Source of the DNA: Raillietiella orientalis
Lineage: Eukaryota
Assembly (NCBI GenBank): GCA_036172245.1
Contig: JAYWIR010000055.1
Coordinates: forward strand, 62,001-126,000
DNA length: 64,000 nt
Direction of reading: 5' to 3'
Under the pieces are notes generated by a model. It was given only the letters and a program-made list of their open reading frames with translations, was not told the DNA's origin and searched no databases. Below, in pieces: positions 16,204 to 41,500 of this stretch; the stretch's first letter is position 1, and every line of letters begins with the position of its first letter. Position numbers and translations under genes: made by a program.

Positions 16204-16242
<39 letters not shown>

Positions 16243-16620
16243 ACACCGGCGACACGCTTCCCGGCGTAGGCACTTTCTCTCCTCCCGTGGTCGATGGTCC
16301 GGAAACCGGCTCCGTCGTCGACGAGGGCGTCGTTCCACTCGCCTTAGGGGACGACGAAACGCTCGCACTCTCCGTCTTGCTCTTCGTGGGTGTCGAAGGA
16401 CCCGTTGCAGTGCTGCTGCCCGCCTCCGGGGACGTCGCGTTCGCAGAAACAGTGCTCGGTGCTCCCGTCGTAGGCTGCGATCCTGGACCACTGCTCGTGC
16501 CCACACTTCCCGGCGTTCGAGTCGGAGAAGCCGTCACCGTACGCGTCGGTCGCTTCGTCGGAACTTCCGTGCTCACCTCCACCGACGACTCAGGGGTTCG
16601 TCTTCCAGTCGTCGACGGAC

Positions 16621-16659
<39 letters not shown>

Positions 16660-17039
16660 ACACCGGCGACACGCTTCCCGGCGTAGGCACTTTCTCTCCT
16701 CCCGTGGTCGATGGTCCGGAAACCGGCTCCGTCGTCGACGAGGGCGTCGTTCCACTCGCCTTAGGGGACGACGAAACGCTCGCACTCTCCGTCTTGCTCT
16801 TCAAAAGGTGTCGAAGGACCTGCTGCAGTGCTGCTGCCCGCCCTCCGGGGACGTCGCGTTCGCAGAAACAGTGCTCGGTGCTCCCGTCGTAGGCTGCGAT
16901 CCTGGACCACTGCTCGTGCCCACACTTCCCGGCGTTCGAGTCGGAGAAGCCGTCACCGTACGCGTCGGTCGCTTCGTCGGAACTTCCGTGCTCACCTCCA
17001 CCGACGACTCAGGGGTTCGTCTTCCAGTCGTCGACGGAC

Positions 17040-17078
<39 letters not shown>

Positions 17079-19168
17079 ACACCGGCGACACGCTTCCCGG
17101 CGTAGGCACTTTCTTCCTCCCGTGGTCGATGGTCCGGAAACCGGCTCCGTCGTCGACGAGGGCGTCGTTCCACTCGCCTTAGCGGACGACGAAACGCTCG
17201 CACTCTCCGTCTTGCTCTTCGTGGGTGTCGAAGGACCCGCTGCAGTGCTGCTGCCCGCCTCCGGGGACGTCGCGTTCGCAGAAACAGTGCTCGGTGCTCC
17301 CGTCGTAGGCTGCGATCCTGGACCACTGCTCGTGCCCACACTTCCCGGCGTTCGAGTCGGAGAAGCCGTCACCGTACGCGTCGGTCGCTTCGTCGGAACT
17401 TCCGTGCTCACCTCCACCGACGACTCAGGGTTTCGTCTTCCAGTCGTCTCGACGGACGCGTGGTCGTGGTCGTGGTCGTGGTCGACACCGGCGACACGCT
17501 TCCCGGCGTAGGCACTTTCTCTCCTCCCGTGGTCGATGGTCCGGAAACCGGCTCCGTCGTCGACGAGGGCGTCGTTCCACTCGCCTTAGGGGACGACGAA
17601 ACGCTCGCACTCTCCGTCTTGCTCTTCGTGGGTGTCGAAGGACCCGCTGCAGTGCTGCTGCCCGCCTCCGGGGACGTCGCGTTCGCAGAAACAGTGCTCG
17701 GTGCTCCCGTCGTAGGCTGCGATCCTGGACCACTGCTCGTGCCCACACTTCCCGGCGTTCGAGTCGGAGAAGCCGTCACCGTACGCGTCGGTCGCTTCGT
17801 GGGTGCTTCCGTGCTGATTTTCACCGTCGTACGATGGCTGGCAGTGGCAGTTGAGGGATGCTGGGTGATGTGAGTTGGTATCTTTGGCTTTGTGGGTGTT
17901 CCTGTGCAAGGTTTGGGTGAATTCGGTTTTGTGCATGGACACATTTTTTGTTTTTTCTTTTGTTTCTTTTTTTTTCTTCGCCGATGTTTTTTAGGTTTTT
18001 TAGTGGTTGTTGGTTTTTCGGTGGTTGTTGGTTTTTTGGTTGTTGTTGCTTTTTCGGTGGTTGTTGCTTTTTCGGTGGTTGTTGGTTTTTTGGTGGATGT
18101 TGATTTTTTAGTTGGGAGGAGGTATTCGTAGTAATAATTATTGTTTTCGTGCGCTCCTATTGTTTGTGATTGAGGTTCACCGTCGTCGTAATTCGTAGGT
18201 GGTCCATATTGTCCGTAGTGGTATGCTGGACCGTATTGGTCGTAATCGAAATTTCTTGATTTCTGATTATTTTGGCGTTGCTCGACGTTAGTGTCTTGTT
18301 TTTGCTCTTGGCTTTCCAGGTTTTGAATTGCAGTTTGTTTTTCTCTATATTGAAAGTTCTCTGATTGAATTTCTGTGTTTCTGGTATTTTGCAGAATTTC
18401 TTTTGCATTGATTTCTGTTAGTTTCTGATTATTCGTTTCCATTGGTTGGTTTATTTCTTTTTGCTTATTCATTGTTATGCCTTTTATTAAGTCTTCTGTG
18501 TGTTTTGCACTTTGTTCATATCGTTGTTTAATTCCGTTATATTGTTTTTGATCCTCCGTGTTTGGGTTCTTCTGTTTTTGCGCATCTCCGTCTGTTTGGA
18601 TTTCGTTTTCTGTACTTGTTGCTAGGCATGCTGTGGAAAGATCAATGAATATGCTGCCAATATTGCACGTGGTCATATTCTCGCTTTAGTGTTTTGACCT
18701 CCGATTTCCTTTCACAAGCATTTTCCCACCAATAGCATTCACGTGCCCATTACGTATCCCCGAGGCGACCACGACACGTTCCATCAAATCTTTTGCATCC
18801 CAAGCCCCTTTCATTTGTTCGTTGCTGCCATCGTTTTTTGCTCGTGTTCTCCGCGTACAATCGCGCGATCCGCAGCGATGGTCATGTTCCCCTTTCGGAA
18901 GGCCCCCTTTTCGCCCAGTTAATTTGACCTGGGTTTGTTGAGGCGGCATCCCCTCGAGCGGCTTGTCCGTTTCAAGTTCGTCCCAAGCCGTTCGTTTCGT
19001 TTTTTCGTCTTTCCGCGATGCTGAGGATCGCGCACGCCATCGATTGCCACGGATGCCTTTGGTGTCCGATTTCGCCACCACCCTGTTTTGCTTTCGTTTG
19101 CAGCTCCTCCCCTTTAACCTACCTGCCACCATGAGCAATGTCAGGGTTCCTTTCCAGATTTCCATCAT
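11537..19168 (-). CDS. Secreted mucin/glue-like protein (orphan); exons 19168-19123, 18630-11953 (spans the repeat array and gap), 11909-11733, 11682-11537
   Basis: The signal-peptide exon MMEIWKGTLTLLMVA splices G|GTAGG...CCACAG in frame to ACLATSTENE. A Q/N/K-rich region, YGQYGP, YYYEY, TTKKP/TTEK repeats, a polybasic run and CPC follow, then 139-aa S/T/P repeats. Phase-compatible 43- and 50-nt GT-AG introns lead to a Cys-rich tail. Indels within the array are probably assembly errors. Confidence 0.8.
12284..12382. other. Assembly gap (~100 N) at the edge of the tandem array
   Basis: Run of N. Confidence 0.99.
12383..17810 (-). repeat. Coding tandem array, 417-bp unit (139 aa), ~13 copies, each with an internal (ACCACG)n poly-Thr microsatellite
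   Basis: Equivalent positions recur at 15672/16089/16506 (417-bp period). Units are near-identical apart from small indels. Confidence 0.95.
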
Positions 19169-19446: not shown

Positions 19447-20960
19447 AGCGTGGACGGCTGTTGCTGCTTGCGTGTCAATCGGGATCGTCCTCACTCTTCG
19501 CGACGTGCTGCTTGCAAGGCGCGCCGTGAAACCATCGCGGTTTCAAGGCGCCTCGGTTTCGACCCCAATCTGTCGCGTCCGCGTCAGGAGGGTGCATACG
19601 CGCGTACAACGGTGACCTCTTGACGCAAGACAAAGCGACTGGCGTTCCAGGAGACTGTGCCTTTCTTTCGCAGACGGCTGCGGCGACACCGATCCTTTGC
19701 CCCGCAACGTTCGTGTCTGTCTTGCTGCCTTCCTCATCGCATCTTCCCGCGAATCTGCCATGAGGAACGGAAGCGGTCCGCTCCTTGGCTCTCGTCCTCT
19801 AGCCCTCCATCACGAGAGGTTGGCCACTTGCCCCTTTTCAACACGGGCTCTTAGCGACTCGGGAACAGCAGTCAGCGTGCGGGCATCGTCTCTTCCTCCT
19901 TGCACTGCTGCTCCCGCTTCGCAGGCAGAGGCGCCCATGCGGGAAGCATCGCCAGTGCTTTCCGTTCTGCTGGACCCCAAACACGTGGAGCACCGTCGCG
20001 TTCCTCCGCATCCTGGGAAACGGAAAGCGCGGACGGAACGCGTCTCCCGTTCCATGCGGTTGGCATCTCGCTCGTCTCTTCCTTCTTAGTCCTTGTCGTG
20101 TTCCCAGCACGGTTTCTATGCTTCTCCAGATCCGCCTTGGTTACAGTCGCATCCGGGTGAGGGAGGAATGCGCAGGAAGCGGTTTCTTCGCATGCGTGGA
20201 TTGGCCACTGCTGGTTCGCCCTCCTCCACGTCTCCTCTGAGGGCACGTCTTCTTTACACCACAACCCTGGTTTCCTTTCCCTGCCGCACCTTACGAGAGT
20301 CCGTCGCTCACCCCCCAGGATGGACGGGTGTTCTTCGTGTCGCAAACGGAAAACATCACGGAACGCACAATTCCTTGCGCGGGTGGCGAAGTAGCGTTTC
20401 GTGTTTTGAGAGGGAAAAAGTCTTTGTGGAACGTTGGCGAGGGCGCCGTGCCGCGAATCGCGTCTATCCTCGCAAGCGCCCGAAACTCCCTCAGCCGATT
20501 CCATGGAACCCGGGAATGCTGTCAGGGTCGTTGCGACGCCCCTTTCCCCGCTGCCGGTGCAAACCGCCCCACCACGCCCTCGTCGTTTGAAGAGGAACCG
20601 TGGCCAAGCAACGGACACTCCAGCGACCGAATTGCAGCGGATCGTCTGAGTGAGTGAAGAGTTTCTCGAATGTGAGGCTGCGCTCTTCCTTCGGTTGACG
20701 CCGTGCGGGCCCACCTCGCCGCCGGCCAGCTACCGTGGTGAGGAATCGAAAGTTCGAGAATTCCGCGCGGAAGGCCGCGCACTTGGTATGCGGCTGACGA
20801 CTTTCGGCTCGGAGACAACTGCGCTCGTCTCACTGGAACGAAATGAGCGCAGTTGTCGTGTTTTCGGGAGAGTCGCTGCAAAGGTTGGAATCTGCAAGTT
20901 GTTTTCGCGGTTTCTCTGCGTGCTGCACGACCCTCTTGCCGGTTGCTAATGGCCACCCTT
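19447..20960. repeat. Direct repeat copy B, forming the upstream region of the mucin gene
   Basis: Appears identical to 1-1514. It begins ~280 nt upstream of the mucin ATG at 19168, but the true left edge cannot be defined because copy A is cut by the window. Confidence 0.95.
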
Positions 20961-22149
20961 TAGCAGCCGCACGCGACGTGCTAACTAATCGAAAAATGTG
21001 TGAAGCGATTTGGATGGCGTCAAGTCACGTCAACGTGTGACCGGAGTTGCACGTGTGTCGACATTTCTCTTGTTTTGCCTCCTGAAGAGTTTTTTGGATT
21101 CATTTGCTTTTTAGAGATGCATGAACTGCGTCGCATTTTGAGGATTATCACTGATTGTCTCGATGGAATGCTGAGATCTTTTGGTCTGTTCTTGTGGTAT
21201 TCTTGTGGTACTTTGAGCTCTGTACTATTTCTTTTAATATCACATGTATGGTACAGTAGTAGCAGTTCTTGGACTGTTTGTTTCTTCGGTTTCTGCTCCC
21301 TAGTTTTTCTCGAAAGATTCTTTCTTTGCACATAGCTTGTCGTATGGAAATTTTGTTTCTAGCAGAATATTTCTTGTTAGAGCATTCGTGATTTGGCGGA
21401 AGTTGATGGCATTTCTGGGTATGGGTAGTGCAGCCTTCCTGAAGATATGGATTTCGTTGTCTTTGAAAATGCGTTCGACTTGGCGTGCCAATGACAGTGT
21501 GAGGAAAATCCACTGTTTTTCATATCTGAAGCACGTTTCAATTTTTGTGTGTTTTAGTTCTTTTTCAAGCTGTAAAAGCCATTTTATTTATATTTAACAC
21601 TACTCGGTTTTATTGGGGGGACCTTAGTTTTTTCACTAATGATTCTGTCATTGGCTTGAATGCGTAGGCGCACATGAATGTGAGGTTTTTCCTGGCTGTG
21701 GCATGAGTTCACGACACTGACGGAAAATCGAGCTTTGCCTTATGTGTTTGTCTACCAAATGAGATATTTGTTCCCTCTTTCCAGGAATGAACTAGCAGCA
21801 TAGGTATTCAATATATTGAGCTTCGAGGATTGTCCGAGGTTGTCCGAGGTATAGGTTGTTCGTATTTGCTCCTTTTTTTATCAAGAAACCCTCGGTATAC
21901 TCGAACCGTATACAAAGGTTGTTCATAATGTTCCATTGACCCGGTTACCTCTGTTTGATTCTTCGCTATTTCAATATTTTCGTGGTAGAATATCCTTCAG
22001 ACCACGCTTTCAGTTTAACTTCTGCCCTCAGGGAATTCGTTGAGGAAAAACAAAAGAGCAAAACAGAAATCCAAGTATCAGCTTGCTGCGAAATACCTTC
22101 ACGAAGTGTCCTTCAGTTGATGAAGGACTGTACAGTGTTTATAGTCGCC

Positions 22150-22620: not shown

Positions 22621-23877
22621 GATTTTGCAAAGAGACTCCTCGATTTACGGAGTGAAGGCTTGATCATCGCTAGCGCCGGGTATCGAAATTCATGAAAGCT
22701 TTCCAAAGCCACAGCGAGAATCACGATGCTGCTGCAAGCAGCCAAGTTTCGTTCTTCTGGACACTTTTTTTAACAGAAGCAATCTCCGAGTAGGGGAATG
22801 AATCCCCATGCGCTGCTGTGGAAACAGGAGACCAAATGAGGACCACTTTGAAATGCAACGCCGCGGGTCCATGCACTTTGCTCCGGGGAAAGAGGGTACT
22901 TTTGAGCCCTTGACACCGTACTTCTCACCGGATGCTGTTTGCTTTAGGAATTCGAATCTACGACCATAATCTTGCACGTATCTCCATGAACGGTCGATCG
23001 CGCTGCTCCACATGATCACAATCTTCGACTCTCACGGAAAAAAATTAAGTAATGTAATTTCCAAGCTAAACTCAGTGTTTGACAGTAAAAGCTTTCACAG
23101 CAAACTTCTCAAATGAACTTGTTTGTGGTTTTATCGATGGAAATCTGGGGGTAAAAGTCGGGTTTGCTGATTCTTGATGGAAACGAAACTTTCCTAGAAA
23201 TTTTATTTGAAACAGAAGACTCATCGCTGCCTATCGTGGGTGCACCTAGTCTTTGGTGTTGAGTAAAAAAACGTTTCGTGAATGAACGCAGTTATCATGG
23301 TTGATCCGGAGTGCTTTTCCATGATGAAACCTTCGAGACAGATGTGTTGTTGCCTTGGTAAGCATTCTGAATACCATCCAAACAACGCTCCTTCTTGAAG
23401 ATGAAGAACGACATGAGCAGCTCCGAACCTTTCAGACAAACGAAACTTGACTGAGCGGACCCCGTCAAAACTTTAAGCATTGCAAACCTTAAAACGACCT
23501 TAAACGTAATCTCAAATTCAAATTTTGATGCAGGGACTGCCACGGAATACGTAAAACGGTTGCACAACGAGCCACGGCTATACGATAGTCAGCAGGGTGC
23601 ATGATGTACGGAAGGTGCACGTTTACGATACGTGGATTCTGAGGTTGCTACGAGAAAGGCATTGGCATTTTGAATTTTCGTGGGAAAGAGATCCTGGGAG
23701 AATTCTTCTCACGTGAACTTCAAACTTCTGAAGTTTCCGGCGCGGGTCAGTTTCAGTCACTGCAGAAGCCTTTTAACATTCAATGCAATTTAAAGAGCAA
23801 CATGTTCCACAGAGTCAAAGCGTATGTTTGAAATAGCAATAGCAGAATCCTTTGTGAGATGGCGACTGTAAACGACA

Positions 23878-23915
23878 ATCGCTTCTTGGCCTTTTGGCTA
23901 AGATCAAAGTGTAGT
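23878..23915 (+). pseudogene. U2: U2 snRNA 5' fragment (nt 1-38), 3'-truncated
   Basis: atcgcttcttggccttttggctaagatcaaagtgtagt matches the conserved U2 5' end with one CpG->TpG change. It stops in the branch-point recognition sequence; no stem-loop II or Sm site follows. Confidence 0.92.
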
Positions 23916-26265
23916 GGGAAATCTTTCCCTATTTTGATTCGGTGAAAGCCATGTGTCTCCAAGAAAGACCAAGTGTACCAGGGTGTGTGAGGATTGTTGG
24001 CAAGACAACTGCCCTGGCCAGAGTCGCCCTTCCTCTTTCTGCATTGATCATCTTGTGCGTGAAAACAGGATACACGCTCATTTGTTTTTGAGCAAGAGGT
24101 TGCAGACTTCCTCTCCCGCAACTGTGTGTGCTCCCAAGAGCTTTACCATCAATTTCTTTTTGTAGAATTCTGACCACATTGGGTAACCGTGCTAACTAAG
24201 TGGAGCATGTTGCTCTTCGAATTGCATCGAGCGTTAAAAGGTCTCTGCGGTGGCTGAGATGAGGAGCTGAACCTTTGCTTCTCAAAATAAATGCTTGCCC
24301 ACACTGAAAACTTCGACGTAATAGAGGGAAAGCAGACTGAAGAAGCAATCCTCATTATGGTTATGTTGGAACGATCAGATGTCTATTAAGCCAGAGACCT
24401 TGTGTGTTTGCAATTCTTGAGAGTTTTACACAGAACAAGGGCTTCACTATTCTTCCAGCTCACTTTAACACATCTTAACAAAACAAGAATTAAACTTTCC
24501 ACTTTCTTCACAGAGAACATCTGTATTGGTGGCAAGTGGAATTTTGATAAGAAAGTACAACTGATTGCAGTCTACATGAAGCATTAACTCAGCTAGCTAA
24601 ATAAATATATCAAGAATTCTACTTATCATTGATCAGACTTGCATGAGCAATGCAGAAACCATGCTCCTACTACTGTTTAATGAACACCAAAGCAATATAA
24701 AGTGAGAATTCATTTCAAAATCTGACAGATGTGTTCCTTCATCATTTTTTTCCTCTCGTTAACTTTGGTAAATAGATGACACATTATAAAACTATTACCG
24801 AGTTCATATGCTCGATAAGATTAAACATTTGCTTTTCATCAGGGAAAAAACTCTTCTCAAAACTCTTCTCCAAAATACCTTAGCAAGAAACACTTTCAAT
24901 CTTCAACTGTCTAAATACAGCTCTCGAAATCCTTACTAGTGACACACTAGGCCATGATCTCCAACACCAAAAAATGTAGCCATAAAAGACATTAGTTTTA
25001 GAAAAATTTTCAGGAGTCAAATAATTTGTGGGACTTTCTGGATTCTTTAAACATCAGAAATATCAACTAGTAATCTAATCAGAAACACTGTATACTCCAA
25101 ACTGATGCCCTGCTTGTCACAGCATTTGTACAATTTTTCTAACCCAGCTGCTAACTATTGATTACTTTATAGAGCATTCAATATGTAAGTGGGTTTACGT
25201 CTACCATTGGAACTGACAGTCTATGCCTATCAAAAAAATGACAGACATTTTCCAAGGGCTTCCTTTCTTTATTTATTTTGGTTACATCCAAAAATGAATA
25301 CTTTGTCTATAAGCGACAAATACCTTGCTAACAAGTTTTATAATTCATCTTTGGAGAAACAATCATTGCTTGAATCACAGAACTAGAGATGATCCACAAA
25401 TATCTACTATAAATATTATTGAATTTATAAATAATGAGCTCTATGAAAATGACAGCATTCTCAGCAGAACTTTTGGGGCACTGAACACAAAATTATCAAT
25501 GAATCTACTGACCTTGACATTAATATGAACACAATGAAGTGTTTGATAGTTTTTTCATTTGTACTGGGTAAATAAACATCCAACCACTCCTGTCTTACAA
25601 GTTATACTTTCAATCTTGCATTATATGATGTACATACCTATTCACTTTTTTGTTTTTGTTTTTGTTTTTGTTTTTCAAGTTATATGCTTTTTATACAGGA
25701 TGCCAGTGTGCTGTCTCCAAACACTATAATTCATCCATCCACAATATAAGCAGTGCCTTCCTGCAACTGAACTAGTTAATTTTTATTTCAATTTTTCATC
25801 ATTTGTCAGAAATACCATAAAGTCACTTTCGAATTAACAAAGCTTTCTTTTTGGTACATCATTATTTAAGTCTAAATACCAACATACATACATGCATCAC
25901 TGTGCTTGTTTTCATCTTTAGAGTTAAAAACTTCTTGAAACATTCACATATCTAAAGATTTACAAATAAGAATTGCTGAAAATAATGAATATGAGTCATG
26001 AAGATACTGATTCTGTAAAGAGGGAGGGAAAAAAAACTGATTATATTAAAATCCAAAGCTCACAGGACAAAGGAATTTTTTTTAATGTTGAAATACTGCA
26101 AAACCAGATATTTTCGTCATCACATTACAGTAACTGCATTGTCTCTCAACTATAACAAGTTTCATCACCAAAACAGTTAACTGAGATGTTAGCCTGAGGG
26201 ATTTAACTATTGATAATCTGGACTACAAAACTCGTCTTATAAAATTAATCTAAGGATTCAACAGT

Positions 26266-27409
26266 TTATTCCTCTTCAGCTGCTATTCCATTGATTTCAT
26301 CCCCCATTCCAAAATCATGTTCATCTGCATCCTCATCCTCATCTCCTGCAACCTCAGCATTTTCGGCTTCTGCTCTTTCCATTTGTTTTTGCAATTCCAC
26401 TTCATCGATATCTGTGACCACTTTTGGCTAATTGCATTGTCAGTAGGCTTCAAGAATATATACATTTTCCATACCGGCATTTCAATACTGAATTCTCCTC
26501 CTGCTTCTTGAATGCTCTCTTGTATCTCTGCAATGGCTGCATGAAGAGCTTTTACACCAAGAGTTCTTTCAGGTGTTGAGGTAGTCATAACTTCTGAAAA
26601 TCAGCTATCTTGTCTAGTTAGGTCTCCTTACCATATAATGGTGGTGCAATTAGATTAATGCGAATAGGGAAATCTTCAGTAGAACATGCAAGTCCTTTCC
26701 GGAGAGCATGTTTTATAGCATCTATGCCTTCATAGCTAAAGCATGTAAGCTTTATGTCTGCACGAATTTTGACAGCTTGGGATGTAAGCTTTCTCTTTAT
26801 ATTTGTCAATAAAACCTCACAAGTCTCTTCATCCAAATTGCACTCATTCAAGATTGCTGGATTGCTTTGAATCCTTAATGCCAAAACTGACAAAGTCAGT
26901 CTTACCTAACTCCAAGTTTAAAAACATCATATGCTGATCCTTTTCCTTTACTTTCAAAGTACCACGCAGTCTTCCTATATAAGTCCTCCAACTGTTCATC
27001 TGATTCATATTCTAATAATTCGGCCACATGTCGTAAAATAGAATTCACAGCTTTCGCTTTGGAAAATTTTTCCGTACACTTATCTACGTCTTCAGCTGAC
27101 ACACGGCGTTTGGACAAATCAATGTATCCTAAACCAAGGCATGTAGGTATATCTTTAATGAAGCAGCATACCTTTTTCCTGATCAACACGGATAACCACG
27201 ACTGGTTCTTGTTTCCCAACTTTAATCAATTTATTTACGGAACGAATTCGACGTCTTGACAGCTCGGACAGTAAAATCATTCCCTCTATGTTATTGTATT
27301 CTAAAAGTGAAACGTAGGCTCCTACATCGGCAATATCACGAACTTTGACCATAACAACATCATCTACTTCTGGATATTTTTGTTCGTAAAATCTACACGA
27401 TAACGGCAT
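26266..27409 (-). CDS. EIF2S1: Eukaryotic translation initiation factor 2 subunit alpha; 5 exons (introns 27129-27171, 26865-26905, 26591-26631, 26428-26474)
   Basis: MPLSCRFY..., [13 protein letters not shown] (Ser51 site), [27 protein letters not shown], acidic tail and TAA at 26266. Confidence 0.97.
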
Positions 27410-28864
27410 TTTGCTGCGGGCAAACTTCTTTTCCAAACAGATTTAGTAACTTCAACACCGTAATCAAAATTAAATGCTGCACGCAGCACTGCAGCCCAAA
27501 CCTCGTTGCATTCTTACCACTGCTAACTTTTGGAGTTGCATTTTCAATGACTAAATTACATAAATACCATTACGCGGTTCCTTTCAAATTTTGCTGCTAT
27601 TTTGCCTTACAGATTTAACAGTTTCCATTGTTCTGTCGCTTGTAACTCAGCTTCCAATGATATTCAATGCTTTCACCGACCCCCATAGCTTCAGTTGTTA
27701 ATTTACTCGTTGGTAAACATACTTACTTAACCTATATAAAAAAACCGAAAATGCATTTACTGACGATAACTTTTCAATGTAATAGATTCAATGGACATGT
27801 TATCAATAGATAGTACACTAATTTATAAACAGAAAATGTGTTGCTCGTAGTAAATGAAAACGGACTCATATAAATGAACATGTTCATGTAAATGAACTCA
27901 TATATCAGAAACACATATGAGATTGAAGATGAAACTGAGGTATCAAAAAAAAGTTTGCATAACACCAACTTTTTACAAAACAGTTTCAAACCATTTATCA
28001 ATGCATTGCTACTGCAAACTGTGAGAAGCTATACTCGTAGGCAAACTCGTGTGAGTCTCAGAGCTGTTTCATTTTCATACTTTTTTGCAGAAAACAATTT
28101 TAGAAAATCGTGAGAGAAGTCGTGTTTTTTATTTTGATCACTTTTAAATGTTTAGAATTCAGAGGCTTCTCGATTTTACGTGCATTAATATGGGTCGGTG
28201 TATCCTTTATCTTCAAACATCTCTTTCTCATTCGAGGTTACACATAAGTAAATTATCATTCACGTTTTTTAAAAATATTTCGTTCTTCATTAATCTAGAT
28301 GAATTCACTTTCTTAATAAATCCAAGATATAGAAAACTCCTATGATATCATAGCAATTACTGTAATCTCAGTCGCTCACAGCAGTTTACATTGAAAACTG
28401 GTGGGCCAGTGGTTTTTTGAAACTGCTGCACCGATTCCAAACTGATTAGCAGTACTCTGGAAAAAGACCGATATCCGTCTCTGGAAATAAGTTGTGTTGT
28501 CTGAATGGTATTTTGTAGTTTTAGGTGCAGTCCACAATGCATTGTTTTATTTCAAAAATCACTTTTTGCCTTGCTTCTACCTAAAAATCTGGTTAGCACA
28601 TTGGGATGCAAACCAGATTTTTTGATAGAAGCAAAGCAGAAAGTGATTTTTGAAACAAGACATTATAGCAAAATTGTTTTTCTGTTCTCCACATCTCTGT
28701 TCTTCTATTCCTTTCTATCTGTTCCTTTTTTTTCCTTTTTTGATCTCCTTCATTCGCGTCATTCTGTAGAATTTCTGCAACAAAATAAACTTTCGATGGT
28801 ATGATAATTTGCGCACATTAATTGCACGAAATTCCGTGTGCTGAGAGTGTTTGGTCAAAGCAAC

Positions 28865-28897
<33 letters not shown>
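28865..28897 (+). repeat. (GAT)11 microsatellite upstream of the DIPK-like gene
   Basis: Read directly from the sequence. Confidence 0.95.
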
Positions 28898-28900
<3 letters not shown>

Positions 28901-28950
28901 ATGTTTCAGTTGTGTTCCGTGCTTGCTTTAGGGCGGAGGTCCTGTGAAGT

Positions 28951-30369
28951 ATGCCCGTGCCTACAAATGCGTGGAAAACGTGCGCCCTTGTAATTCTGAT
29001 GATCATTTTCGTGGAACTGTATTTGTCGATGTTAAGTGGGAGCAGAAAAAGGAACTTTGTGGACAAGCCAGACTCAAATCCTGGAATTTTGAATGTGGGG
29101 AACAATTTGCTGTCGCCGATCTCCCGGGAGGATAAGTGCCCCGCGTGCCTCGGACGTGAATTCTGTGAAGAAATCAAAATGGGATTTATTCGCACAACGA
29201 ATGAGCAGCTCAAAGCATTCGAACAATCTAAAACGGCAAACGTGAACATCAAAGGATTTTACGGAAGATCATTACCTGTGATAGTAACTATAGTTAGCCC
29301 ATTTTTATTTGAGCAAGTAATTGTATACATGTGCGAAAATTTAATTAGAAAGTCAAATTGTGATTTAGAGATGATAACAAAGGAATTGTTTTCCTATGAT
29401 TCTGAAATAATGGTCGTTACTACTCTAACATCTATCTATCAGTTTTTATCCGTATCTGCCAAAGATGTACTGTAAGCAGACTGAGTAATTTGAATTTGCC
29501 TCATTTGATTTCTGTAGGCCTTTAGCCTGCGTAACACCAAACTTGGGAAGGCAATTTCAGACGCTGTTTGATGAAGATAGGAATGGACTTATCACTGATG
29601 ATGAAAGGACCATCTCATTTTTTACTGCCTTACTTAGCCCACAGTATTTGATCAGAAAAGTAAAGGAGGGCTACACTGAAAATTTTTTTTTCATTCTGAA
29701 ATAGTTTATCATTGCAGAAATGGGTCAAATTCCATTTCTGGATTTATATGGAGCATGTGGACAACTATATGTCAGTAGCGAGCCTGTTAATTCTTTAAAA
29801 CTTTTTTTGAACAGGACTTTTCCTGAGAGGGCTGCACTTGCTGTACAGCTGCTAAACTTTGTTAATTCTCTTGTATCAGATGTGAGATGGAAAATCCTGC
29901 TGTTAGATTTATCATTGAATAATTTTGCTCTATTTGATCAATCAGTAGTAATTGTGAATATGGAAACTGTGATGCTTCTGGATAACATGGAAATGGTGGG
30001 AAATGTTTCTAAAGATGCATGTGATTTAGTATGCTTGAAATCACTCCATTATCACATTTTGAATGGAAAAAAAATTCGATACAAACACCCAATATGTGAA
30101 AAAGTTTCACAATTTGCAATTGAACTTATGCTTCTTGAGCTGTGTTTGAATTCTTTGGATGAGTCAACAGGTATGCCAACTTCATACATTGTGATATTTC
30201 ACATTCATATTCAGGCTTATTACACCACATTCCTGAAGAACATGATTTTACGATTAAAAAATATTTGAAAGGATGCCATGCTGTTACAAGTCATTGGAAT
30301 ATTAAGAATGTAATGCTTGAGCTAAAAGATTATTTAGAAATACTGAGTAGTAATTATGAAGGCAACTAA
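28951..30369 (+). CDS. DIPK2A: Divergent protein kinase domain 2A-like (DIA1/C3orf58/FAM69 family) secretory-pathway kinase-like protein; 4 exons (introns 29472-29517, 29660-29704, 30171-30214)
   Basis: N-terminal signal/TM segment, KCPACLG..C, EF-hand-like DEDRNGLITDDE, LYGACG, DLSLNNF and GLLH. The spliced frame is open to TAA at 30369. Confidence 0.8.
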
Positions 30370-31400
30370 GTTCATAGGAATCACTGATTGCAATGGATTT
30401 GGATCTATTACTTGTTAGCATTTGCATACTGAAATGCATTTGAGTAGTGATTTTCAAAATTGATATTGACAGTGCCCAGAGTGGACCAAGAAATATTATC
30501 AGTTACATATTAAAGGAAAGTAGTGAAAATATAATGACAAGCATAACAATGTGGAAACTGAAGTTGACTATTATTTAAAATGAGTGGTATCAAAAACAAT
30601 TCCGGTTCCATTCTTCCAAAGAGCAATGAGCTGCCACCCAGGCAGATTCGTAAATGTGTCGAGCAGAGCATTGCTTTCCCCAAATTTACACTCTACTTTA
30701 AAGATCATATTGTTCATGCTGAGGCTGACTGTCAAATTCTGGTTGATAGTCTGTGAGTGATTCTTGTGTTGAAAGCAGATCTTTTTTTTTTTCCCCTGTA
30801 GTTTAGGAAAAGAATACTGAAATGAAGCTGAGGGAGCATCGAGCTAACGTGGTATCAGGAATTTGCAGGGTCACTTGGTAAACAAGGAGTTCACAATTGA
30901 AAGATTGAAGAACCCATGCAAGAATTTTGTGAGCATTCAGTTGAAATGCACAAGAAATTTTTGAATATGAATCACTTCCCAGTTTTTGAACACTAAGTTT
31001 TCCCTTTCACAATTTCAATTACACATGTGGGGATACATTAAAGGGCCCTAGAAAAAGGGACACACCTGCATGGCAAAAACAGAATACCAAGCAGTATTTA
31101 AATTGAACACATATTGACGTTAATGTTGAATTCAGGGAGCAAAACAAGCCACTCCACACTCGATGTCTCTGCAAAAAAATTCACAAGAGAAAAGTTTGTT
31201 AACACTGCCGAACCCTTGTCCCCATTTGATTTCATTGAAGGAAGTGGCCGTTAGGAGCTTTGCTCCAGATGAATAGGAGCTAATCTCTTCAGAAACACAC
31301 TGCAGGCTGTAAATATGAGACGTCAGGGAAAAGTATTCAAATGTCGTGCCACGTGTTGCAATCATTGCATGTTCGTGTTGGCAGGAAAGCATCCGATCCC

Positions 31401-32475
31401 TTAACCCTCAGCATCCTGGTGGTGTCCGATGGTCACTTTTTTCAAATTGACTTTCATACAAAATCGAAAAGTATTTATTTGATTGAGGACTTACTTTGTC
31501 CAATTTATCCTCACTGTTGAATTTGCATGATTATCTTAGCAAAATTTTCTCAAAAAAAGAAAAAAACATTCTTTTCTTTATTTTAACAATTTACCAAAAA
31601 TACAGCGTGGCGCCTCAAATTCGCACCTGCTTGAACCTGTTAAAAACTAAATCATGTGAAAATATTGCGTACCGTTACTGCTTTTGCTATCAATACTTGC
31701 TGACCTGTGCAGGCGCGAGGATTTTTTTGCAGATGTGGTGCCTCTGATAGTGAAAGTAACTTCCCGGAAGTAGCGTCTGAAGTCGATGATACGGTGATGA
31801 GGAAAAGACAAATGAAGAGGACGACCAAGAAAATAATTATAACAACCCGAGTGATGAATATGTAGGAAAAGATGGAGCCAAGCAAAACCGGCAAATATGA
31901 GAAGAAGAGGAACACGGCATAATAGAGTCCGGGACTGAGTTCGTGGGGTTGTTCTCCCACCAGAGAAAAGAATCCCATCGGCAGTTTCAGTTTATCTTTC
32001 GACCGGAATGTACTGCAGCTTGTTGTAAAACATCCCAATTCCGAAACTATAAGAGGATTGGGACATAAATCGCATTGCAAGCATTTATAGGTCTACCATG
32101 GACCACTGGTGTTGATAAACAGAGCGACTCAGACTGTGGGGAGCGTTGGGATCGGACATGGGGTGATCCCATATTCCGTGCCACCGTGGGGGCAAATCGA
32201 TTTGCATCCATTTCTACGTTTTCTAAGATTTGGCGGTGAAAATGCAGGGACACCTGAAAAGTCAACTAGCACGAAAAAGATAAGTTGTGTGAAATGGCTT
32301 CTTAAATGAATAGCAATAATATTAATGACTTATCTTATATGATAACAGTGAACTTTTTTGCATTATTTATTTCATTTTAATGTACTTAAGAGTAATGTGC
32401 CTATCGGACACTACGGGTCAGTTGCGTTAGGGGATGTTTTCATTTACTGGTTGCATATGGGATGTTAAGGGTGAC
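31401..32475 (+). mobile_element. Internally deleted, decayed piggyBac element
   Basis: The left end ttaa-ccctcagcatcctggtggtgtccgatggtcac is an imperfect inverted repeat of the right end gtgcctatcggacactac...gggatgttaagggt. Internal transposase relics include acidic SDSES, AFIGL and IPY..RFG. Confidence 0.65.
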
Positions 32476-33049
32476 GTATGAAACTGATACACTGGAGTGG
32501 CTCTGTCAGCAGGGATTATGGAACCAAATTGCACTCAAAAAGATACTTATGAAAAGTTGAACTGTCTCCAAAGGGCCGCGTGCCGTTTGTCGTGCGTGTT
32601 AAAGCGTCTCACATGCCCAGGCATGGGATTGTAACACAAATGGTCGCTCACTAGCAGCTAGGGAATGTGGGTGGCATTCTCATTTCTTCATTCTCATTCT
32701 CATTTCCCCTATCCCCACCCACCCCCACGCACACAGACATACGCACAATCCATTAGAAAAGTGAAACTTGCCGTAGACAGGCTTCAAAATGTGGATTGCA
32801 CGGCCTGCATCTGCTTGAAGAATAGGAATGTCCTAGATGGAGGTAGCAAGTAAATCGATAGCAAGAAAAACGAAACTTCACGTGGTTAAAGGAAATGAAC
32901 AGACGCTATTTAAAGTGAAATCGAAAGCCATTTCTGACTTTTAGAAACGATCTGTACTCGGTGACGAATATTTAAGCAATCCATTCCAAGGACTTGACAT
33001 GGTGTCGGGGGTCTTGTGTTCCCAACATGATTTCATCTTACTCGCAGCT

Positions 33050-33760
33050 TTAGTGGATGCTGCTCATCCTTTCGCAGGGTTTCGAGGGATCCCCGAAAAT
33101 GGCATCCGCGACCTCCTCTCGGTCATTGTCGCGTACAAAATACAAGGGACAGGGATGGTGGGGTGGCAGCACCGGCGGGCGTCGTCGTGCGCCGCTGAGA
33201 ACATCCACGCCTTCCCTCTGGAACGCTTCCTTTCCCTGACAAACCTCCCCAGTGCCCCTCACGCCTACTTCAGCCTCGCCCAGAGTGGGAGGTCGCCGAA
33301 ACTCCGGCAACCCCCGCTCCTCCTGAGGACTGTCTCCTTCCCCGGCATAGGGAGTCCACCCAGGCAGAGGAGACGGCCCGATCAAGGGCCAAGGCTGCTG
33401 CTGGTTGCCTTTTTTCCCCAATGTCCATCCGCTGCCATTTGACCAGGAGTGATACTGCGCTACTTAGGCGGCAGCAAAAAGAGGCTTTTCTCTTCGTGCG
33501 CCAGTGGCGTCCCGTGACCCCGGCGCTGCCATCGCCAGGTTCGAGAGGGGATGGGGGCGAATCTCGAACCTGCTGCTGGACGGAGCCGTCGCGGCGCCGC
33601 TACACAGGCGGAGCTGTGGAGGGCTGTGCCTTCCCGCGGTGCAGTCGGGACAGAGGGCTTCAGCAACTCGACGTTGGGGAGCGGGTGGAGTGTCCTTATC
33701 TGCAGCAACGGGCGAAGGATGGACGCTGCCCGCATCGCCCGTAGGCACGGCGGGCCCAGC
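33050..33760 (-). mobile_element. Decayed CR1/jockey-type RT remnant, GC-shifted
   Basis: PEFRRPPTL (cf. PENYRPISL) and DAIFGDPSKPCERM (cf. DAIFLDFSKAFDRV) in ORF 33050-33421, with GDAGSVHP upstream. Confidence 0.4.
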
Positions 33761-34149
33761 AACAGCTGCCACCCAGCCCCTCCCTTCTCCGCCATTATGG
33801 ATTCCTCCTTCCCGCCCCCTCCCTCGCCCTTTCCGTCCCCCGCTTCTGGCCGATCTGCAGGTCGGTCGATGGTTCGTCTTCCCTCTTCGCGGACTCCTGG
33901 AACTGAGAGACGGAAGTCTCGGTCCATTCCCACCTACACCTCCTTTCCGGGAAGACGCAAGCGGCGTCACTAGTCAACAGCGACGACCCTACCTGCATGG
34001 TGGCGCCGCAGGAGCAGGATGCACTGGCACACCTTTCGTAATGCGCACGCTGGCCTCGCTGTGGACGGCGGAGGCGACGGTTCGCGCCCAAACGATCAGC
34101 CACCCCACTCGGGTGCGCGCTCCTCCTCACAGACCTCTGGGCCCTCCGG

Positions 34150-34194
34150 GTACACTCTTCGGCTGTACATATACTAAAATTGGAACGATGCAGA
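34150..34194 (+). pseudogene. U6: U6 snRNA 5' fragment (~nt 1-45), 3'-truncated, with flanking direct repeat
   Basis: gtacactcttcggctgtacatatactaaaattggaacgatgcaga matches the U6 5' stem-loop and the invariant CATATACTAAAATTGGAACGAT. It ends in the ACAGAGA box, and cagacctctggg occurs at 34130 and 34191. Confidence 0.93.
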
Positions 34195-35521
34195 CCTCTG
34201 GGTCCGTCCTGGCCATCGTCCCCCAGGCACGTCTTGCGAGGAGGAGGATCGGCGTGGGTCGGATCGCTTCGGCTCTCTGTAGCACCGAGCGGCGCGCCCC
34301 GCAGCAGGGGTCACGGCCTCCTAGCTCCCCGGGGGGAATGCGGCGCCATCGCGACGACATTTACGCCGAAGTCTTCCGGGTCCTTCCCTCCTGAGAACCG
34401 CAGGCAACCGCCAGCAGGACGCGCGCGCAGGTTGTTGCAGAGGCTGGGATGGAAGCGCGCGCCCGTTCCCTGAAGCGCTCTTCCGTTCGCGAGGTCATAC
34501 AATCAGAGGAGGGGGACCTCGTGTCTTCCAGTTCCGCGAGAAGAAGCCCCTGAACTGCCGCCGAACCGGAAGCAGCACATGTGACCCGAGGAGCGCCATT
34601 GGAATGGCCGAATCCGTGTGACGGCTCCCAACGCGTCTCGAGCGCGCCTCCGCCGCCACTTATCGGATCCACAGCCCTCTTTCCAGGTAGGGGTAGGGGA
34701 CCGCGCTGGGACTACGTGACCAGCGGTGGAGGCGAGAGGGAAACGACGGCACGCACGCATGCCAGCCGCGCGCCCCGGAAACCTCCATGGAACCCGTTGT
34801 CATCATGACGGAGCAGGGGTGCGAAACCGAGGGAAAGGGCTTCTGCCCTCGCTGCCCGCCGTGTGAGCCGCGCGCGTGCTTATAGACCCGGACTGGGATG
34901 CCTCCCTTCCCGGCTGTTTTCCTTCCTCTTCCGCAGCGGCGTTGCGGTCTGCGTATGCTGCTGATGGAGGTCGCTGCTCTTCCTCGCAAGGAGGGCGCCG
35001 GGTTCGCTGGGGAGACCTTGGGACGGGCTGCGAGGCGTTCCCGGATCCCGGTGCGACGGGAGCTCGGAGGCCGTCCCCACCCCTGGAGGGAGAAGTCCCA
35101 CGCTGTCTGGAGGCGACGCGGTCTGTGGCTGCCTTCTCCTCTTCTTCCCCCCCTGCCCCTCCCTCCCCGCGGGGGAAGACCTTCGCTGGAGAGGGCACTT
35201 TCCCAGTCGCGTCGGAGCCTCTGCGGCCCCTGTGGTCCTTCTCGGCGCCGGGAAGGCTCCGTGACACCGGAATCTAAACGGAATCCTACCCCCACGCCTC
35301 CCGCGGGCCCGTGCGGGCGCGTCTTCTTCCGCAGCACGGGATGCTTCGCAGGCGGAGCTGCCCTTCCAGTCCGCTTCCTTCCGCCCTTCGATCCTCCCCC
35401 TCCTTTCCCGGCGGGAGGTCACGGTCCTCGGCAAGTGGGGCAGTGCCCGCCAGCGCGCCCCCAAAAGAGAAAGTGGAGTGGCAAGTAGTGAAAAGGGGGC
35501 GCCACGCCCACCTCTTCCTCC

Positions 35522-38500
35522 TCATCTATTGGCTTCCGGGGACTGCTTGGGACTGATCCAGGGAGGACTGGCGGAGTCCGGTGGCCCTGAGAGAACGAAG
35601 CCCAGAGACTCCTCGGTGCCGTGCAGCTCGTGGATGCGGTCCAGGAGCTCCTCATCCTGCACGCCGCCGTTCTGGAAAGGGGGAAGGGGGTTCCGTGGCC
35701 GGTGGCGCCATGAAGGCGCACCTGGACCATCCACTTGTAGGCTACGGCAGCCAGCCGCCTCTGGCCGGACTCCAGGGACAGTAAGCACAGGTACGCCCAG
35801 ACCTCGGGATCGGCGCTGTCTAGAGCGTTGGCCTCGCGGAAGGAGTCCTTTGCCTCCGGCAGGTCGCCCGCCTACGGTCGCCCGGAAGCAGCGCGAGTGA
35901 GTGCTCTCCCCCTCGGATGTGAGCGTCGGGCTCCTCTGCCCCCTTCCCAGGGTCGCGAGGTTGTCCCCGCACCTACCTGGTACAGGGCCTTGCCCAGGCC
36001 CTTCCAGGAGAGTGGGGAGGGATCGTTGCGGCAGGCCAGCGCGAAGGCGTTCCTGGCTTCTTGCAGGCACCCCTCTAGGGACAGGCACACCTCTCCCAGC
36101 CTGAGGCAACAATAGGGGCTAAGAGGAGGAAGGGAAGGGCCACGCCCGCCGCCCCTCCTCCTCCCTCTCCTGCTCTTTGAACTGCGCTCGGGAGCGAAGG
36201 CGAGAGCTCCGCAGGTCTCCGTGGGGCAGGGGGCCTAATGCGGAGCGGGAGGAAGGGTAGGGAAGTAGGTCGCGGGTCTCGCTGGCCTACCCAACCGGCC
36301 CCCAAGGACTATCCAGCGGAGCAAGAAGGAAGCAAGCGCCACGCCCATAGGGGACCACAGGAGAAGTCCACTTCGGATCCCTCCCATCCCCACAGCCCTC
36401 TTCCCCGTGACCAGCAGCATCTTGCCGCCGGGAGCGCTCCGGGCGGTGGCTCACCGAATCAGCAGGCCGTGGAGGTCCCGGATGGAGTCCACCGACGAAC
36501 CTCCCAGGACCAATGCCCTCTCGAAGAAGACTTTCGCGTTGCGGTAGTCCCTCCGTTCGTGGTGGACGTGCCCCAGGCAGGCCCACAGCTCGGGGTCCTG
36601 GAGGAGGAGATGCCGCCTGCTACCCCGGTACTTACCGCGAGGTCGGACCGGATGGAGTACTCCAGGACGCGCGCCGCTTCGTCGTGCAGGCCGAGGGCCA
36701 GGAAAGTTCTGGCGCAGAGCAGGGAGCGCCGCCGGGCGCAACCGCCGTGGACTTCCAGCTCAAAGGCGAGTGCCTGCTGCGCCAGCTGAAGCGGGAAGAG
36801 AGGGGTGAACGTGAGGAAAGTGGAGTGAGGAAGGAAGGCGGCGGTAAGGAGGAAAGTCGGTCGCCACAGCCCTGTCCAGCGTGACGGCGCTTTCGCCGCT
36901 TCACTCCCTCCACTCCCAGACCTCCTTCCTCCTCCTGCTCCCCTGATCGAGGCCCTCCGACGAGGCTGGCAGGGCTCATCGGATGTGTCTGGGAGGAATG
37001 AGCCGCAGGCTTAGGGGCACAATGTGATCGAGAACTCAAGACGACCGCAGCAGCCGAAGCGTATGACTGCCGGAATGGCCTCCGGCGCTCGCAGAGTGGA
37101 CGAGGTTCGCCCGCCGCCTATGAGCGGGATTTTCGTTTCGCGGCTCCCGAAGAGGGGTCCGACGGAGGGTCACCGTAGAAGGCGCGCTCTTTCGAGTCCC
37201 CGCGGGCACCCCCCTTCGGATCCAGAGGGATGAGGTGGGCGTGGCGCACCCTATCGAAGAGTCGTGCGCAGCTGCCAGGCTTTCCCTTTCGTCTTCGGCC
37301 TTCGCGAGGGCGCTCAGAGAACATGGCGCGACGATGGAGGGGGCCGGGCGCTCGCTACCGCTCCTTCGCGCAGCGCCCCCTGGGGCGCAGCCGCCGTCAC
37401 TACGACGAGAAGGAGGGGTAGGAAGAGAGAAAGAGGAGGAGGGGGGTGTAAGAGGAGGAAGGGAGGAGAACGCGGGTTGAGCAAGTCATCCTGCCCTCGG
37501 TTTCCGTAGTGATTTCCAGCCCCCCTCTGAAAACGGGCAGGCCAGCATCTCGGAGGCAGTGCTGCAGCAGTGTGACTTGCGCTGCGCGCTCACTGCGCAG
37601 AGCCTCAGGCGTCAACCGCGGATCCGTGCGTGAGCGCAACCCCTCCTCCCTTCCCGACCGTAGCGGTCCGCGGACGAGGCGGGAGGAAGGTAGCTTCCCC
37701 TACTTTTGTTTCGGAGTACGCGCGCCCGGGCTGCGCCGGAGCGAAAGGGGGGTGGGAGACGTGAAAGGAGGAACTCCCCACCGTGTAGGCGCATCTCTCC
37801 AGGAAGTATTCTCCTGCGTCGAGTAGGCACTGGTCCCAGGCTTCAGTCCTAGGAAGGGGCTCGGATGCCTTCAGGGCAGATGAAGCGCTTCCTTCGCTTC
37901 TTCCCGAGGAGACACTTTCCTTCGGGCGTCGCGAGGCACCTTCGGAAGGGAGAGAGGATGAAGGAGGCGCGCTCGCAAGGACCCCGCGAGTCCCCTTCCC
38001 ACCCCACCGATCCTCCCCTCGTTTCCTTACTCAGTCCGCCTTCCGGATCCCTTGCTGCCTCTGCCTCCACCCGACCTGGAGAGGTGTTCTCCGGGGGGAC
38101 GTCCTTGCGCCCCGTCTCGTCCGAGTGCGCGCCCGCGGCCTCGCGCTGGAGTCTCCACATCTGGCAACCTGCGGGAGAATGTCCGTCGGCCTGGGACGAC
38201 CCCTCCGCCCGAGCGCTACCTTTGCGCACTTCCACGTCGGACAGCACAGGCTGCCCCGCGCGGTGGTGAAACATTCCGAGCGTAATCCACGGCTCCCAGC
38301 GTCCCGGGTGAAGGAGGGCGCAGTACTGCAGGAGGTCTTCGCAGGTGGACGGCTCCTGGAGGCAGCACCGGCACCACGCGAGCAGCAGAAGCCTGCAAGG
38401 GTCCCGCAGTCCCAGGGGAAGGAAGAAAAGAGCATCTCCCGCTCTGCTGGGACCACCGCGTGCACGAGCATACTCTCCTCTCCCCCCTCTCATCCCTTCA

Positions 38501-41500
38501 GGGAGCTGAACGAGAGGGAGTCCGGGAGGTGACCGGGGGGCAGCTTTCCAGAGTCAGCCTCCCCTTCCTTCCCGTCGACGCCGCCCGTTGCCGGAAAGGA
38601 AAAAGGACGACCTTTGAAGGTGAGTGGGAAAGACCCCCGCGGGGACCAGTTCTTGCCCGGTGTTCGAAAGTGTTGGCGGCCTTACCGCCTATGCTTCCTC
38701 CGCAGCTCTGCATCTCTGGGCAGGGTCATACTCTGGTCCGCTCCAACACTCCCGCAAGGCGCCTACCTCCCACCCTCCCACCTGCGCAGCGGAAAGGATC
38801 GGGGAACCACGTGGCGTCATTCCTGAACTCTGGAATCTGGCCAGACTGCCCTTCTCTCGCTGGCCGCCAGGCACCCGCGGAGGAAGGGCAGCTCCGTTCG
38901 CAAGTGCACCCGTGTCGTCCGCCGGCGAATTGTCCGGGGCGAATCCGTGCCCCGATGCCGCCTACCAATGCTCCTCCCCATCGTCTGGAGAACGGAGGTG
39001 AAGGGAGAGAGAACTCAGCAGCATCCAGAATGCCGGAGGGGGCTCCCGGAGGAGTCGGGAGGGAGGGCACACTGCGGATGGGGTGCCAGGCACGGGTCGC
39101 GTTCGCAGGAATGATCCACACCTCCAGTTTCCAGCCAGCTTGATGACCCCGAGTTCGGCGAGCGGGTCCGTCCCGGTGCGGTCTCCCCAAGTCTTCGGCA
39201 GCGACCTCGGGTGGCGGCGCCTGCAGGCCCCATCCGCCGGTGGGAATTCGCCGCTTCCCTCCGGGACGTCTCGAAGGAGTGGGGGTGCTCGTTCCGGACT
39301 TGGACTGCGGATCGAGGAGGGAGAAGGGGCGCCTACGTTCGCTCGTCATCGGCACGGACGCGACACAGGGCACCCCCAAGCTTCCAGACCGTGAGGAGTC
39401 ACGGCATCTCTTGTTCTCTCACTGGCGATGGTGGCACGATCGCGGCCCACAGCACCCGTGTCCCGGAGCTTCGCTGGTTCACTCCTCCCCCTCCTTTCTC
39501 CCGTTTTTCCACGAGACCCGGAAGAACCGCCTCAGGAGAACGGGGTCCACCACTCCCTCCACCAACGAGACCCGGAGGCAGCGGCTGCTGCGGAGGGTGA
39601 TCTGCGGTGGCTGCTGCTACTGCTCCTCGCAGACTCGGGAACCGCCTGCACCACCGCTCCCTGCGGTCTCAAAGGGTGCGTGCAGGGTAACGCTGCTTAC
39701 GGCCTCCTCAGGGCAAGTCCCCACTCACCCGCCCGCCCTCGCTTTTATCCTTCTTTTTGCTTCGCTCTGCAGCGCAGGACTTCCCAGGGCGAGACCGCGT
39801 GTGCGCCCCGAAGGTCGTTGCTCTTCTGCACTCAGTGACCCCAGAAATCACCGAGACGCAGACCCTCCCCTATTCCGGGGAGCAAGCACCCTCCTTTTGT
39901 TCATCGCGGCTTATCTTGTCCGTCTCTCCCAACCCGGAGCTTAGGGCACCGCGGGAAGGTCGCCACCGGCGACCACCCGCCAGTTCGCCGGAGGCGCACT
40001 CTCCAAACAGCGCTGGAGGCGGGCCACAATGGCATCGCCACACCTACCTCGGGCCAGCAGAAGCCCCCACTCGTCCATCTCCGGTCCGTATTTCCCGACC
40101 CTTCTCGACCTCCTCCGGCCACCAAAAGTTCCCTGACCTCCGAAGTTGCCGCCCCGCTGGCGCGCGCCCGCGCGCGCACCTTGAGCATCGCGGGGGTTAC
40201 ACTGCTCTTTACCAGGTCCTTCCCGTAGGGTCCGATCCCAGGAAGCCGAGCCCGCGCACTCCGCCTCGAAGGGGCGTCGGACGATGCGGCAGCGTCTCGC
40301 GGGCGCCTCTGCTCCGCAGCCCCGAGGGAGGACCGTACCCGAAGGAGAGAACGGAAAAGATCCCGGAGGTCAGCCCCCTCCATGTCTCGCTGCCCTCCGC
40401 AATCCCTGAGGCAAGTGCGGGCGGGAAGTGCCGGACGACTCTTGGGAAAAGGAGGAGGAGGAGAGGGGAAGGAGCTGCCGTAGGGGGCGACACCGAGAGC
40501 GAAGTTCATCCCGTACTGAGCGGGCCAGGGTAACCGATGACCTCCCAGCCAACGACCTCTCTTCTGCTACCCCCCCATTCCCTCCCACACGCACGCGCGC
40601 GCGCACAGTCGAAGGAAAAAGCCCACCGGGGAGGTCTCGCGGAGACCACGCTCAGTCGTGGCAGGAGGACCCAAGGGGACGCGCGGGGGCATGCCTCCGG
40701 CGCCCCAGGAAGCGGTCAAGCGAGAAGGAAGGGGTTCTGTCCGGGGAGGACATCTCTTACCCGTCCAGGTGCGTTCGGTCCGAAGACAAAACCTGCAGGA
40801 AGCATCCGTCGGCCCTCTCGTATCGGCCGAGCCCCAGGCAGAAGACCCCGTAGTCGATCCACGCAAAGGGCTTGCCGCCTGTCAACAGGATCCGCTGGGC
40901 GCGGGAGAGACTCTTAGGAAATGCCGTGAGGGAAGGTCACCCACATGTCGGTGGAAGGCGTCCGCCTTGCCCGAGTGTCCGCACAGTGCCGCCTCTCTGG
41001 CAAAGTGGAGCAGCTGAGTCTCCGTGACGATGACCGGGGGCACTTCCTCCTCGCGCGCCTCCGGGCTTCCGTTCAGGACGTCATGCACGTGGCACATCAG
41101 GTGGGCGTACAGGTCGCCGAGGGGCTGCGCGGCGGCAGAGTGGGGAGGGGCCCCGGTCACGACTCCCACGCGCGGGCGCAGCTCACCTGCCGGAGGTCCT
41201 CCCGACCACCCCCCTCCACCTCCAGGAGCAGCCCGCTCCGGGCCACCTCCAGGGCGCTCTGCTTCAGGCGCTGCTTGAGGGCACAGAGGGTGCCGGACCG
41301 GCGCTGTACGTCCAGAAACTCGCGATGCTGCCGGGCGAATCCCTCCGCTACAAGAGGAGGGGGGATCAGAGGAGAGGGATGGAGGCGGTTTTGCAGGCGG
41401 GGTCACTCACGCGAGAGCTTCCTCCCATCACCGAACATCTGGCGGAACTCAGTCGCCAGGAACTCGGCCGCTTCCCCGACGAGTCGGCGGAAGTCCTCCA

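Follow-up and report, generated by a model that had tools for sequence, protein, structure and literature searches.

Two 5' snRNA fragments in a 64-kb stretch of Raillietiella orientalis DNA: a probable internally primed U6 retropseudogene and a U2 piece of less certain route

We analysed 64,000 nucleotides (nt) of Raillietiella orientalis DNA (contig JAYWIR010000055.1 of assembly GCA_036172245.1, positions 62,001 to 126,000 of the forward strand), referred to below as the window and numbered from its first letter. Two short pieces of spliceosomal small nuclear RNA (snRNA) sequence lie in it, one from U2 and one from U6. A preliminary description had claimed two such fragments within about 10 kb of each other, each beginning at nucleotide 1 of its RNA and each ending in the motif with which that RNA recognises pre-mRNA, and a cmscan search of the whole window against Rfam agrees with this on every count. 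The U2 model matched 23878-23952 on the plus strand from model position 1 onward (39.8 bits, E 1.6e-4), with real agreement limited to the first 38 bases, 23878-23915. The U6 model matched 34150-34194, also on the plus strand, over model positions 1-43 of 105 (25.4 bits; E 0.042 in the whole-window search and 0.0092 in a search of 14 kb). Both scores fall below the Rfam gathering scores (46 for U2 and 44 for U6), as would be expected of stubs of about 40 nt, and a scan at gathering thresholds reported nothing for the window. Core words of 20 nt (U2 piece) and 23 nt (U6 piece) proved unique in the window, and none of 100 shuffles matched. No further match to U1, U2, U4, U5 or U6 was seen in the 64 kb at E <= 10. 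ARAGORN, run with tRNA-derived stubs in mind, found no transfer RNA (tRNA) genes in the window.

The U2 piece (23878..23915, +) corresponds to U2 nt 1-37 and carries one additional A in the run at 23906-23908; it spans stem-loop I and the greater part of the branch-point-recognition stretch. Apart from a single change in the bulge of stem I it is near-undecayed. Its 3' end falls within the branch-point-recognition stretch. The preliminary description was right about the U2 identity and the start at nt 1, but had placed the end at nt 38, one base later than we do.

The U6 piece had been described as running from nt 1 to about nt 45 and ending in CAGA, and cmscan confirms this extent. Positions 34150..34190 (+) hold U6 nt 1-41, in which the 5' stem-loop is followed by single-stranded sequence as far as the ACAGAGA box; they are the unambiguous portion of the probable retro-insertion. 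The following four bases, CAGA at 34191..34194 (+), which we take to be nt 42-45 in human numbering, are read both as the end of U6 and as the start of the downstream copy of a flanking repeat described below, and form the priming microhomology. The piece ends in ...GATGCAGA, the ACAGAGA box opening with G instead of the consensus A, and its 3' end lies inside that box, at model position 43. Its 5' stem is unlike the Rfam consensus, yet all five of its five base pairs are standard, which would fit the native U6 of this lineage as the source.

In both cases the cmscan alignments begin at model position 1, so that the 5' end of each piece is nucleotide 1 of the source RNA, and on reading the sequence we saw no A-run after either piece. 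The branch-point-recognition stretch of U2 and the ACAGAGA box of U6 are both single-stranded segments of their RNAs. That the two end points coincide with pre-mRNA recognition motifs is mostly a consequence of these motifs being exposed single strands.

The U6 piece lies between two copies of a direct repeat, which a repeat census and local alignment both recovered and which constitutes a target-site duplication. The upstream copy (34130..34147, +) contains an exact 12-nt word, CAGACCTCTGGG, at 34130-34141, and, if a gap and a mismatch are allowed, reaches 18 nt; the downstream copy (34191..34209, +) carries the same word at 34191-34202. Gapped local alignment of the two gave 17 identical columns of 19 and a score of 26, reached by only 2 of 2000 shuffles. 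Eight bases separate 34141 from U6 nt 1 at 34150, and, given the extended duplication, the GG at 34148-34149 are the only extra bases before the RNA-derived sequence begins. The last four bases of U6, CAGA, are at the same time the first four of the downstream copy. The whole piece forms an island of 40% guanine plus cytosine (GC) at the edge of a block of 67% GC, and the bottom-strand nick that would have opened the site reads GGTCTG/TGAGG. Exact direct repeats of at least 12 nt, spaced 30-120 nt apart and outside tandem arrays, number two pairs in the 64 kb, and the pair flanking U6 is one of them. The other (39511-39522 and 39565-39576, spacing 54 nt) brackets 42 nt of GC-rich sequence that has no RNA-family match, and could mark a second small insertion or be due to chance.

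These features suggest a course of events for U6. A staggered break would have been made in GC-rich intergenic DNA, and the freed 3' end of the bottom strand (...GGTCTG-3') would have paired with CAGA in the accessible ACAGAGA box of a U6 RNA. A reverse transcriptase would then have transcribed the RNA back as far as nucleotide 1 and appended two G residues, and repair of the stagger would have left the duplication of 12-19 nt. The sequence itself shows which RNA each piece derives from, that both begin precisely at nt 1 and, for U6, the duplication, the microhomology and the lack of a tail. We infer the enzyme to have been the reverse transcriptase of a long interspersed element (LINE), with a nick unlike the TT/AAAA of L1; the order of these steps and any link between the U6 event and the U2 piece are likewise inferred. 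We regard it as very probable that the U6 piece is a secure tailless retropseudogene, produced by internal priming at a GC-rich nick site that is not L1-like.

The surroundings of the U2 piece are different in kind. It is enclosed by an inverted repeat whose two 63-nt arms, at 23753..23815 and 24195..24257, are 81% complementary and were recovered by BLAST (E 3.5e-11), by alignment and by repeat finding; the piece begins 62 nt inward of the left arm. We considered that the inverted repeat might be a miniature inverted-repeat transposable element (MITE) and rejected this, as reading of the flanks revealed no duplication at its outer ends. The consensus pattern of the arms had no match in metagenome contigs. 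A further candidate, a mini-snRNA within the 80 nt downstream of the U2 piece, was dismissed after that segment folded no better than its shuffles (z +1.31). Some 450 nt downstream of the U2 piece, at 24365-24380, there is a U6-like 14-mer (TTGGAACGAT, then CAGA); we take it as probably due to chance because an Rfam search of 231 nt gave no U6 match.

For U2, copying would have started in the single-stranded branch-point-recognition stretch, and the product would have entered the DNA without a duplication, for example as complementary DNA (cDNA) captured at a break or by an insertion accompanied by loss of target sequence. That the U2 piece belongs to the same class of tailless retropseudogenes as the U6 piece is a tentative assignment, to which we would give slightly less than even odds; it is best described as an RNA-derived stub of uncertain route. 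For the two pieces together we place the probability at roughly 0.6 that the U6 piece is a tailless target-primed retropseudogene, with the U2 piece most likely a further copy derived from RNA.

Tailless retropseudogenes, or 3'-truncated snRNA pseudogenes, of therian mammals were reportedly described by Schmitz in 2004. That such retrocopies exist in mammals, as the preliminary description had stated, is borne out by two later studies. In the account of Doucet 2015 (PMC4476161), 3' truncation affects 65% of the human snRNA copies that were characterised, and duplications accompany 70-100% of the truncated ones; the truncations fall in single-stranded purine-rich segments, the junction at the 3' end shows complementarity to the target, and the L1 enzyme is proposed to initiate internally. 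Noll 2015 (PMC5322556) catalogues 2,402 tailless retropseudogenes in human, which are truncated where the RNA is single-stranded and show 2-18 nt of complementarity to the target, with a published nick consensus of TT/WAAAAWW. The mechanism put forward in the preliminary description, and by us for U6, is therefore one already published for mammalian 3'-truncated snRNA and tRNA pseudogenes. Both window pieces resemble these copies in starting at nt 1, ending in a single-stranded region and lacking an A-tail, and the U6 piece also shares their flanking duplication and complementarity at the 3' junction. Unlike them, the window target is GC-rich rather than TT/AAAA, the U2 piece has no duplication, and the host is not a mammal.

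The lengths of the two pieces, about 38 and 45 nt, lie within the size classes listed for mammals. In part 3 of Table S6 of Noll 2015, which we take as a U2 list because the cow 5S list stands in part 1, 23 of the 24 rows at the top, which come from cow chromosomes 6 and 7, are 30-41 nt long, and the remaining rows are, by eye and uncounted, mostly of similar length. For human U6, the 62 rows listed in part 7 of Table S2 include 45 copies of 30-41 nt, four of 46-48 nt and 13 of other lengths. The 38-nt U2 stub is thus the standard mammalian form, and a U6 stub that ends in the ACAGAGA box is a minority form in human.

Several observations weigh against our interpretation. The U2 piece lacks a target-site duplication: in a comparison of the 40 nt upstream with the 60 nt downstream, the best flank alignment scored 9, which 1890 of 2000 shuffles also reached. 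No word of at least 9 nt from the 50 nt upstream of the piece recurs in the next 2.4 kb, and since the U2 piece is almost undecayed, decay of a former duplication is no excuse for its absence. On the U6 side, the two duplication copies diverge past their first 12 nt, position 41 is G and not A, and among the human U6 copies listed in Noll 2015 only four of 62 end in the ACAGAGA box, which indicates that the box is not a general hot spot. The nick site does not conform to the TT/AAAA-like consensus of L1-type enzymes; this argues against an L1-like enzyme, and not against the mechanism. Finally, Pfam searches of open reading frames (ORFs) in the window (12, 98, 44 and 76 ORFs, in partly overlapping sets) found no reverse transcriptase, endonuclease or transposase domain. 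The earlier idea that both fragments arose by internal priming on their recognition motifs is supported for U6, with its duplication, its shared CAGA and its run to nt 1, but not for U2, which has no duplication and for which there is an alternative in the form of a LINE target site.

That alternative concerns the LINE families Utopia and Keno. The U2 piece could be what is left of the 5' end of a U2 gene into which such an element had inserted, the element and the 3' part of U2 having been lost later. Kojima and Jurka 2015 (PMC4640811) report that the U2 sequence on the 3' side of Utopia begins with nt 39, so that nt 1-38 would be expected upstream, that Keno uses the same site, and that arthropod Utopia families make no target-site duplication. 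The window piece, which ends at nt 37 and is followed by a base that differs from U2, is one base off this published break at nt 38/39. It also has no duplication, and the eIF2alpha gene of the window is closest to arthropod proteins. The end point itself does not discriminate, since the same zone of U2 is the main truncation zone of mammalian U2 retrocopies. Set against this reading is the lack of any trace of the element: the U2 piece is adjoined by no LINE sequence, and among 44 nearby ORFs of at least 40 amino acids (22.7-26.5 kb, a set that left out two ORFs overlapping the U2 piece) none had a Pfam match at E <= 0.01, nor did the weak matches, taken to E 1, include any family of reverse transcriptases or endonucleases. 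Sequence from the 3' part of U2 is likewise nowhere in the window at E <= 10. With no LINE remnant and no U2 3' half, a split U2 gene needs an extra deletion step, and we consider this origin unlikely.

A second alternative, to which we give about the same low weight, is that one or both pieces are filler DNA, a short cDNA- or RNA-templated patch captured during end-joining repair of a break, with no element endonuclease involved. The U2 piece would suit such an origin, having no duplication and sitting inside an inverted duplication of local sequence (63-nt arms, 81%), which suggests a rearranged repair site; the exact start at the first base of the RNA in both pieces points to an RNA template. 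For U6, however, the duplication of 12-19 nt needs a staggered cut. For U2, the arms of the inverted repeat are 19% diverged, far more than the piece differs from the U2 consensus, so that the inverted repeat and the U2 piece need not stem from one event.

We hold it to be improbable that the pieces are the heads of short interspersed elements (SINEs), with the downstream sequence belonging to a repeated family. SINEs with heads from the 5' parts of U1 and U2 do exist, as in the crocodilian SINEU elements, of which SINEU-3 carries a 32-bp U2 5' part (Kojima 2015, PMC4494074), and a short U2 5' part heading a retro-inserted unit would resemble the piece seen here. In the window, however, the U6 duplication closes right after the snRNA part and leaves no room for a body, the U2 piece has neither a duplication nor a tail nor any recognisable body, a second copy of either flank was not found in the window, and no unusual fold is predicted for the 80 nt that follow the U2 piece. 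Least probable of all, and hardly to be credited, is that the pieces function as genes for short RNAs resembling snRNAs, such as decoys presenting the recognition motif for the branch point or the 5' splice site: the 5' stem-loop and recognition motif are near-intact in both, but there is no arrangement of Sm site and 3' hairpin with a fold signal downstream of U2, and U6 stands between duplication copies in GC-rich DNA with no TATA-like element upstream on reading.

Two further routes are known by which U6 sequence is copied or broken, and we rejected both for the window piece. In chimeric retrocopies of U6 and L1, made by template switching or RNA ligation, U6 likewise serves as template for a LINE reverse transcriptase and the copy has flanking duplications; those described, unlike the window piece, consist of a full-length U6 joined to a LINE or mRNA 3' part and an A-tail. 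The window U6 stops at model position 43 of 105, with the duplication copy immediately after it. Dada-U6 DNA transposons (PMC8869645) similarly leave split U6 genes, but their described target, CTTGCGCAG, lies further 3' in U6 and their duplications are 6-7 bp; the window piece ends before that target.

From these two copies the preliminary description had extrapolated to a putative large family of internally primed snRNA insertions across the genome; within the window only the two were found. Two stubs in 64 kb amount to about 100 times the density of tailless U2 and U6 copies in human (666 and 143 copies in 2,861 Mb), which comes to about 0.23 U2 and 0.05 U6 copies per Mb as computed from Noll 2015 (PMC5322556). 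The window was, however, picked for holding both stubs, so this density is no evidence for a family. We think it unlikely that this lineage has a reverse transcriptase, not L1-like, that nicks GC-rich sites and routinely primes on the exposed recognition stretches of snRNAs. If it did, there should be a dense family of snRNA 5' stubs, with tens of copies per Mb if the window is typical, and the first outside amniotes and maize. The 5' part of U6 had no match in metagenome, prokaryote genome or viral contigs.

In the survey of Noll 2015 (PMC5322556) the class is recorded in therians and the green anole, with eight U2 copies in maize, and is tied to the relaxed L1 of therians and anole; none is recorded in platypus, chicken, rice or Arabidopsis, and the 15 genomes given there include no invertebrate. 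In a limited literature collection, judged by title, we found no report of snRNA retropseudogenes from invertebrates or arthropods. The window may thus possibly hold the first documented case outside amniotes and maize. Tailless retrocopies mark the activity and the template choice of LINE reverse transcriptases, and the U6 case, with its duplication, its microhomology, its non-L1 nick and its apparently invertebrate host, suggests an ability of other reverse transcriptases to start within small RNAs, which bears on the origin of processed pseudogenes outside mammals. With one secure and one ambiguous case, this wider point should be taken as a lead.

The remainder of the window provides the setting. 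Pfam matches identified exons of eIF2alpha on the minus strand at 26.3-27.4 kb, an exon of a FAM69/DIPK-type kinase on the plus strand at 29.7-30.3 kb (FAM69 family confirmed, although a protein search with this exon gave no match), an exon of a family-2 glycosyltransferase on the minus strand at 51.2-51.5 kb, and a PIGO/PIGG-like gene on the plus strand at 58-60 kb. One eIF2alpha exon, when searched, gave arthropod proteins as its best matches, at no more than 79% identity, and no near-identical protein was present in the searched collection. Judged by that exon, the host is arthropod-like and probably an invertebrate. The readable introns of this gene (26560-27200, minus strand) have GT...AG ends and measure 43, 32 and 38 nt, lengths that few animals would be expected to show and that give a hint of the host's lineage.

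The window is a mosaic in base composition, with the genes in DNA of 35-39% GC and other blocks at 65-67% GC. These GC-rich blocks, of 10-12 kb, lie at 34000-46500 and also at 12000-18000; they had no Pfam match in the ORFs scanned and, besides one tandem array, no internal repeats. The array consists of 13 copies of a 417-bp unit (12383-17815), adjoins a gap of 99 N at 12284-12382, and continues a mucin-like ORF rich in Thr, Ser and Pro (17411-18685, minus strand). It is flanked by a 1,565-bp duplication, 1-1565 and 19447-21011, with 99.5% identity between the copies, which is either a recent duplication or an assembly artefact.

Between the divergent eIF2alpha and FAM69-like genes there is a near-perfect hairpin of about 120 nt (28543-28662). 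Its predicted fold reaches -63.7 kcal/mol (z -12.45), which none of 200 shuffles equalled, and both strands gave weak matches to microRNA families. Possible readings are a foldback or MITE-like element and a gene for a hairpin RNA.

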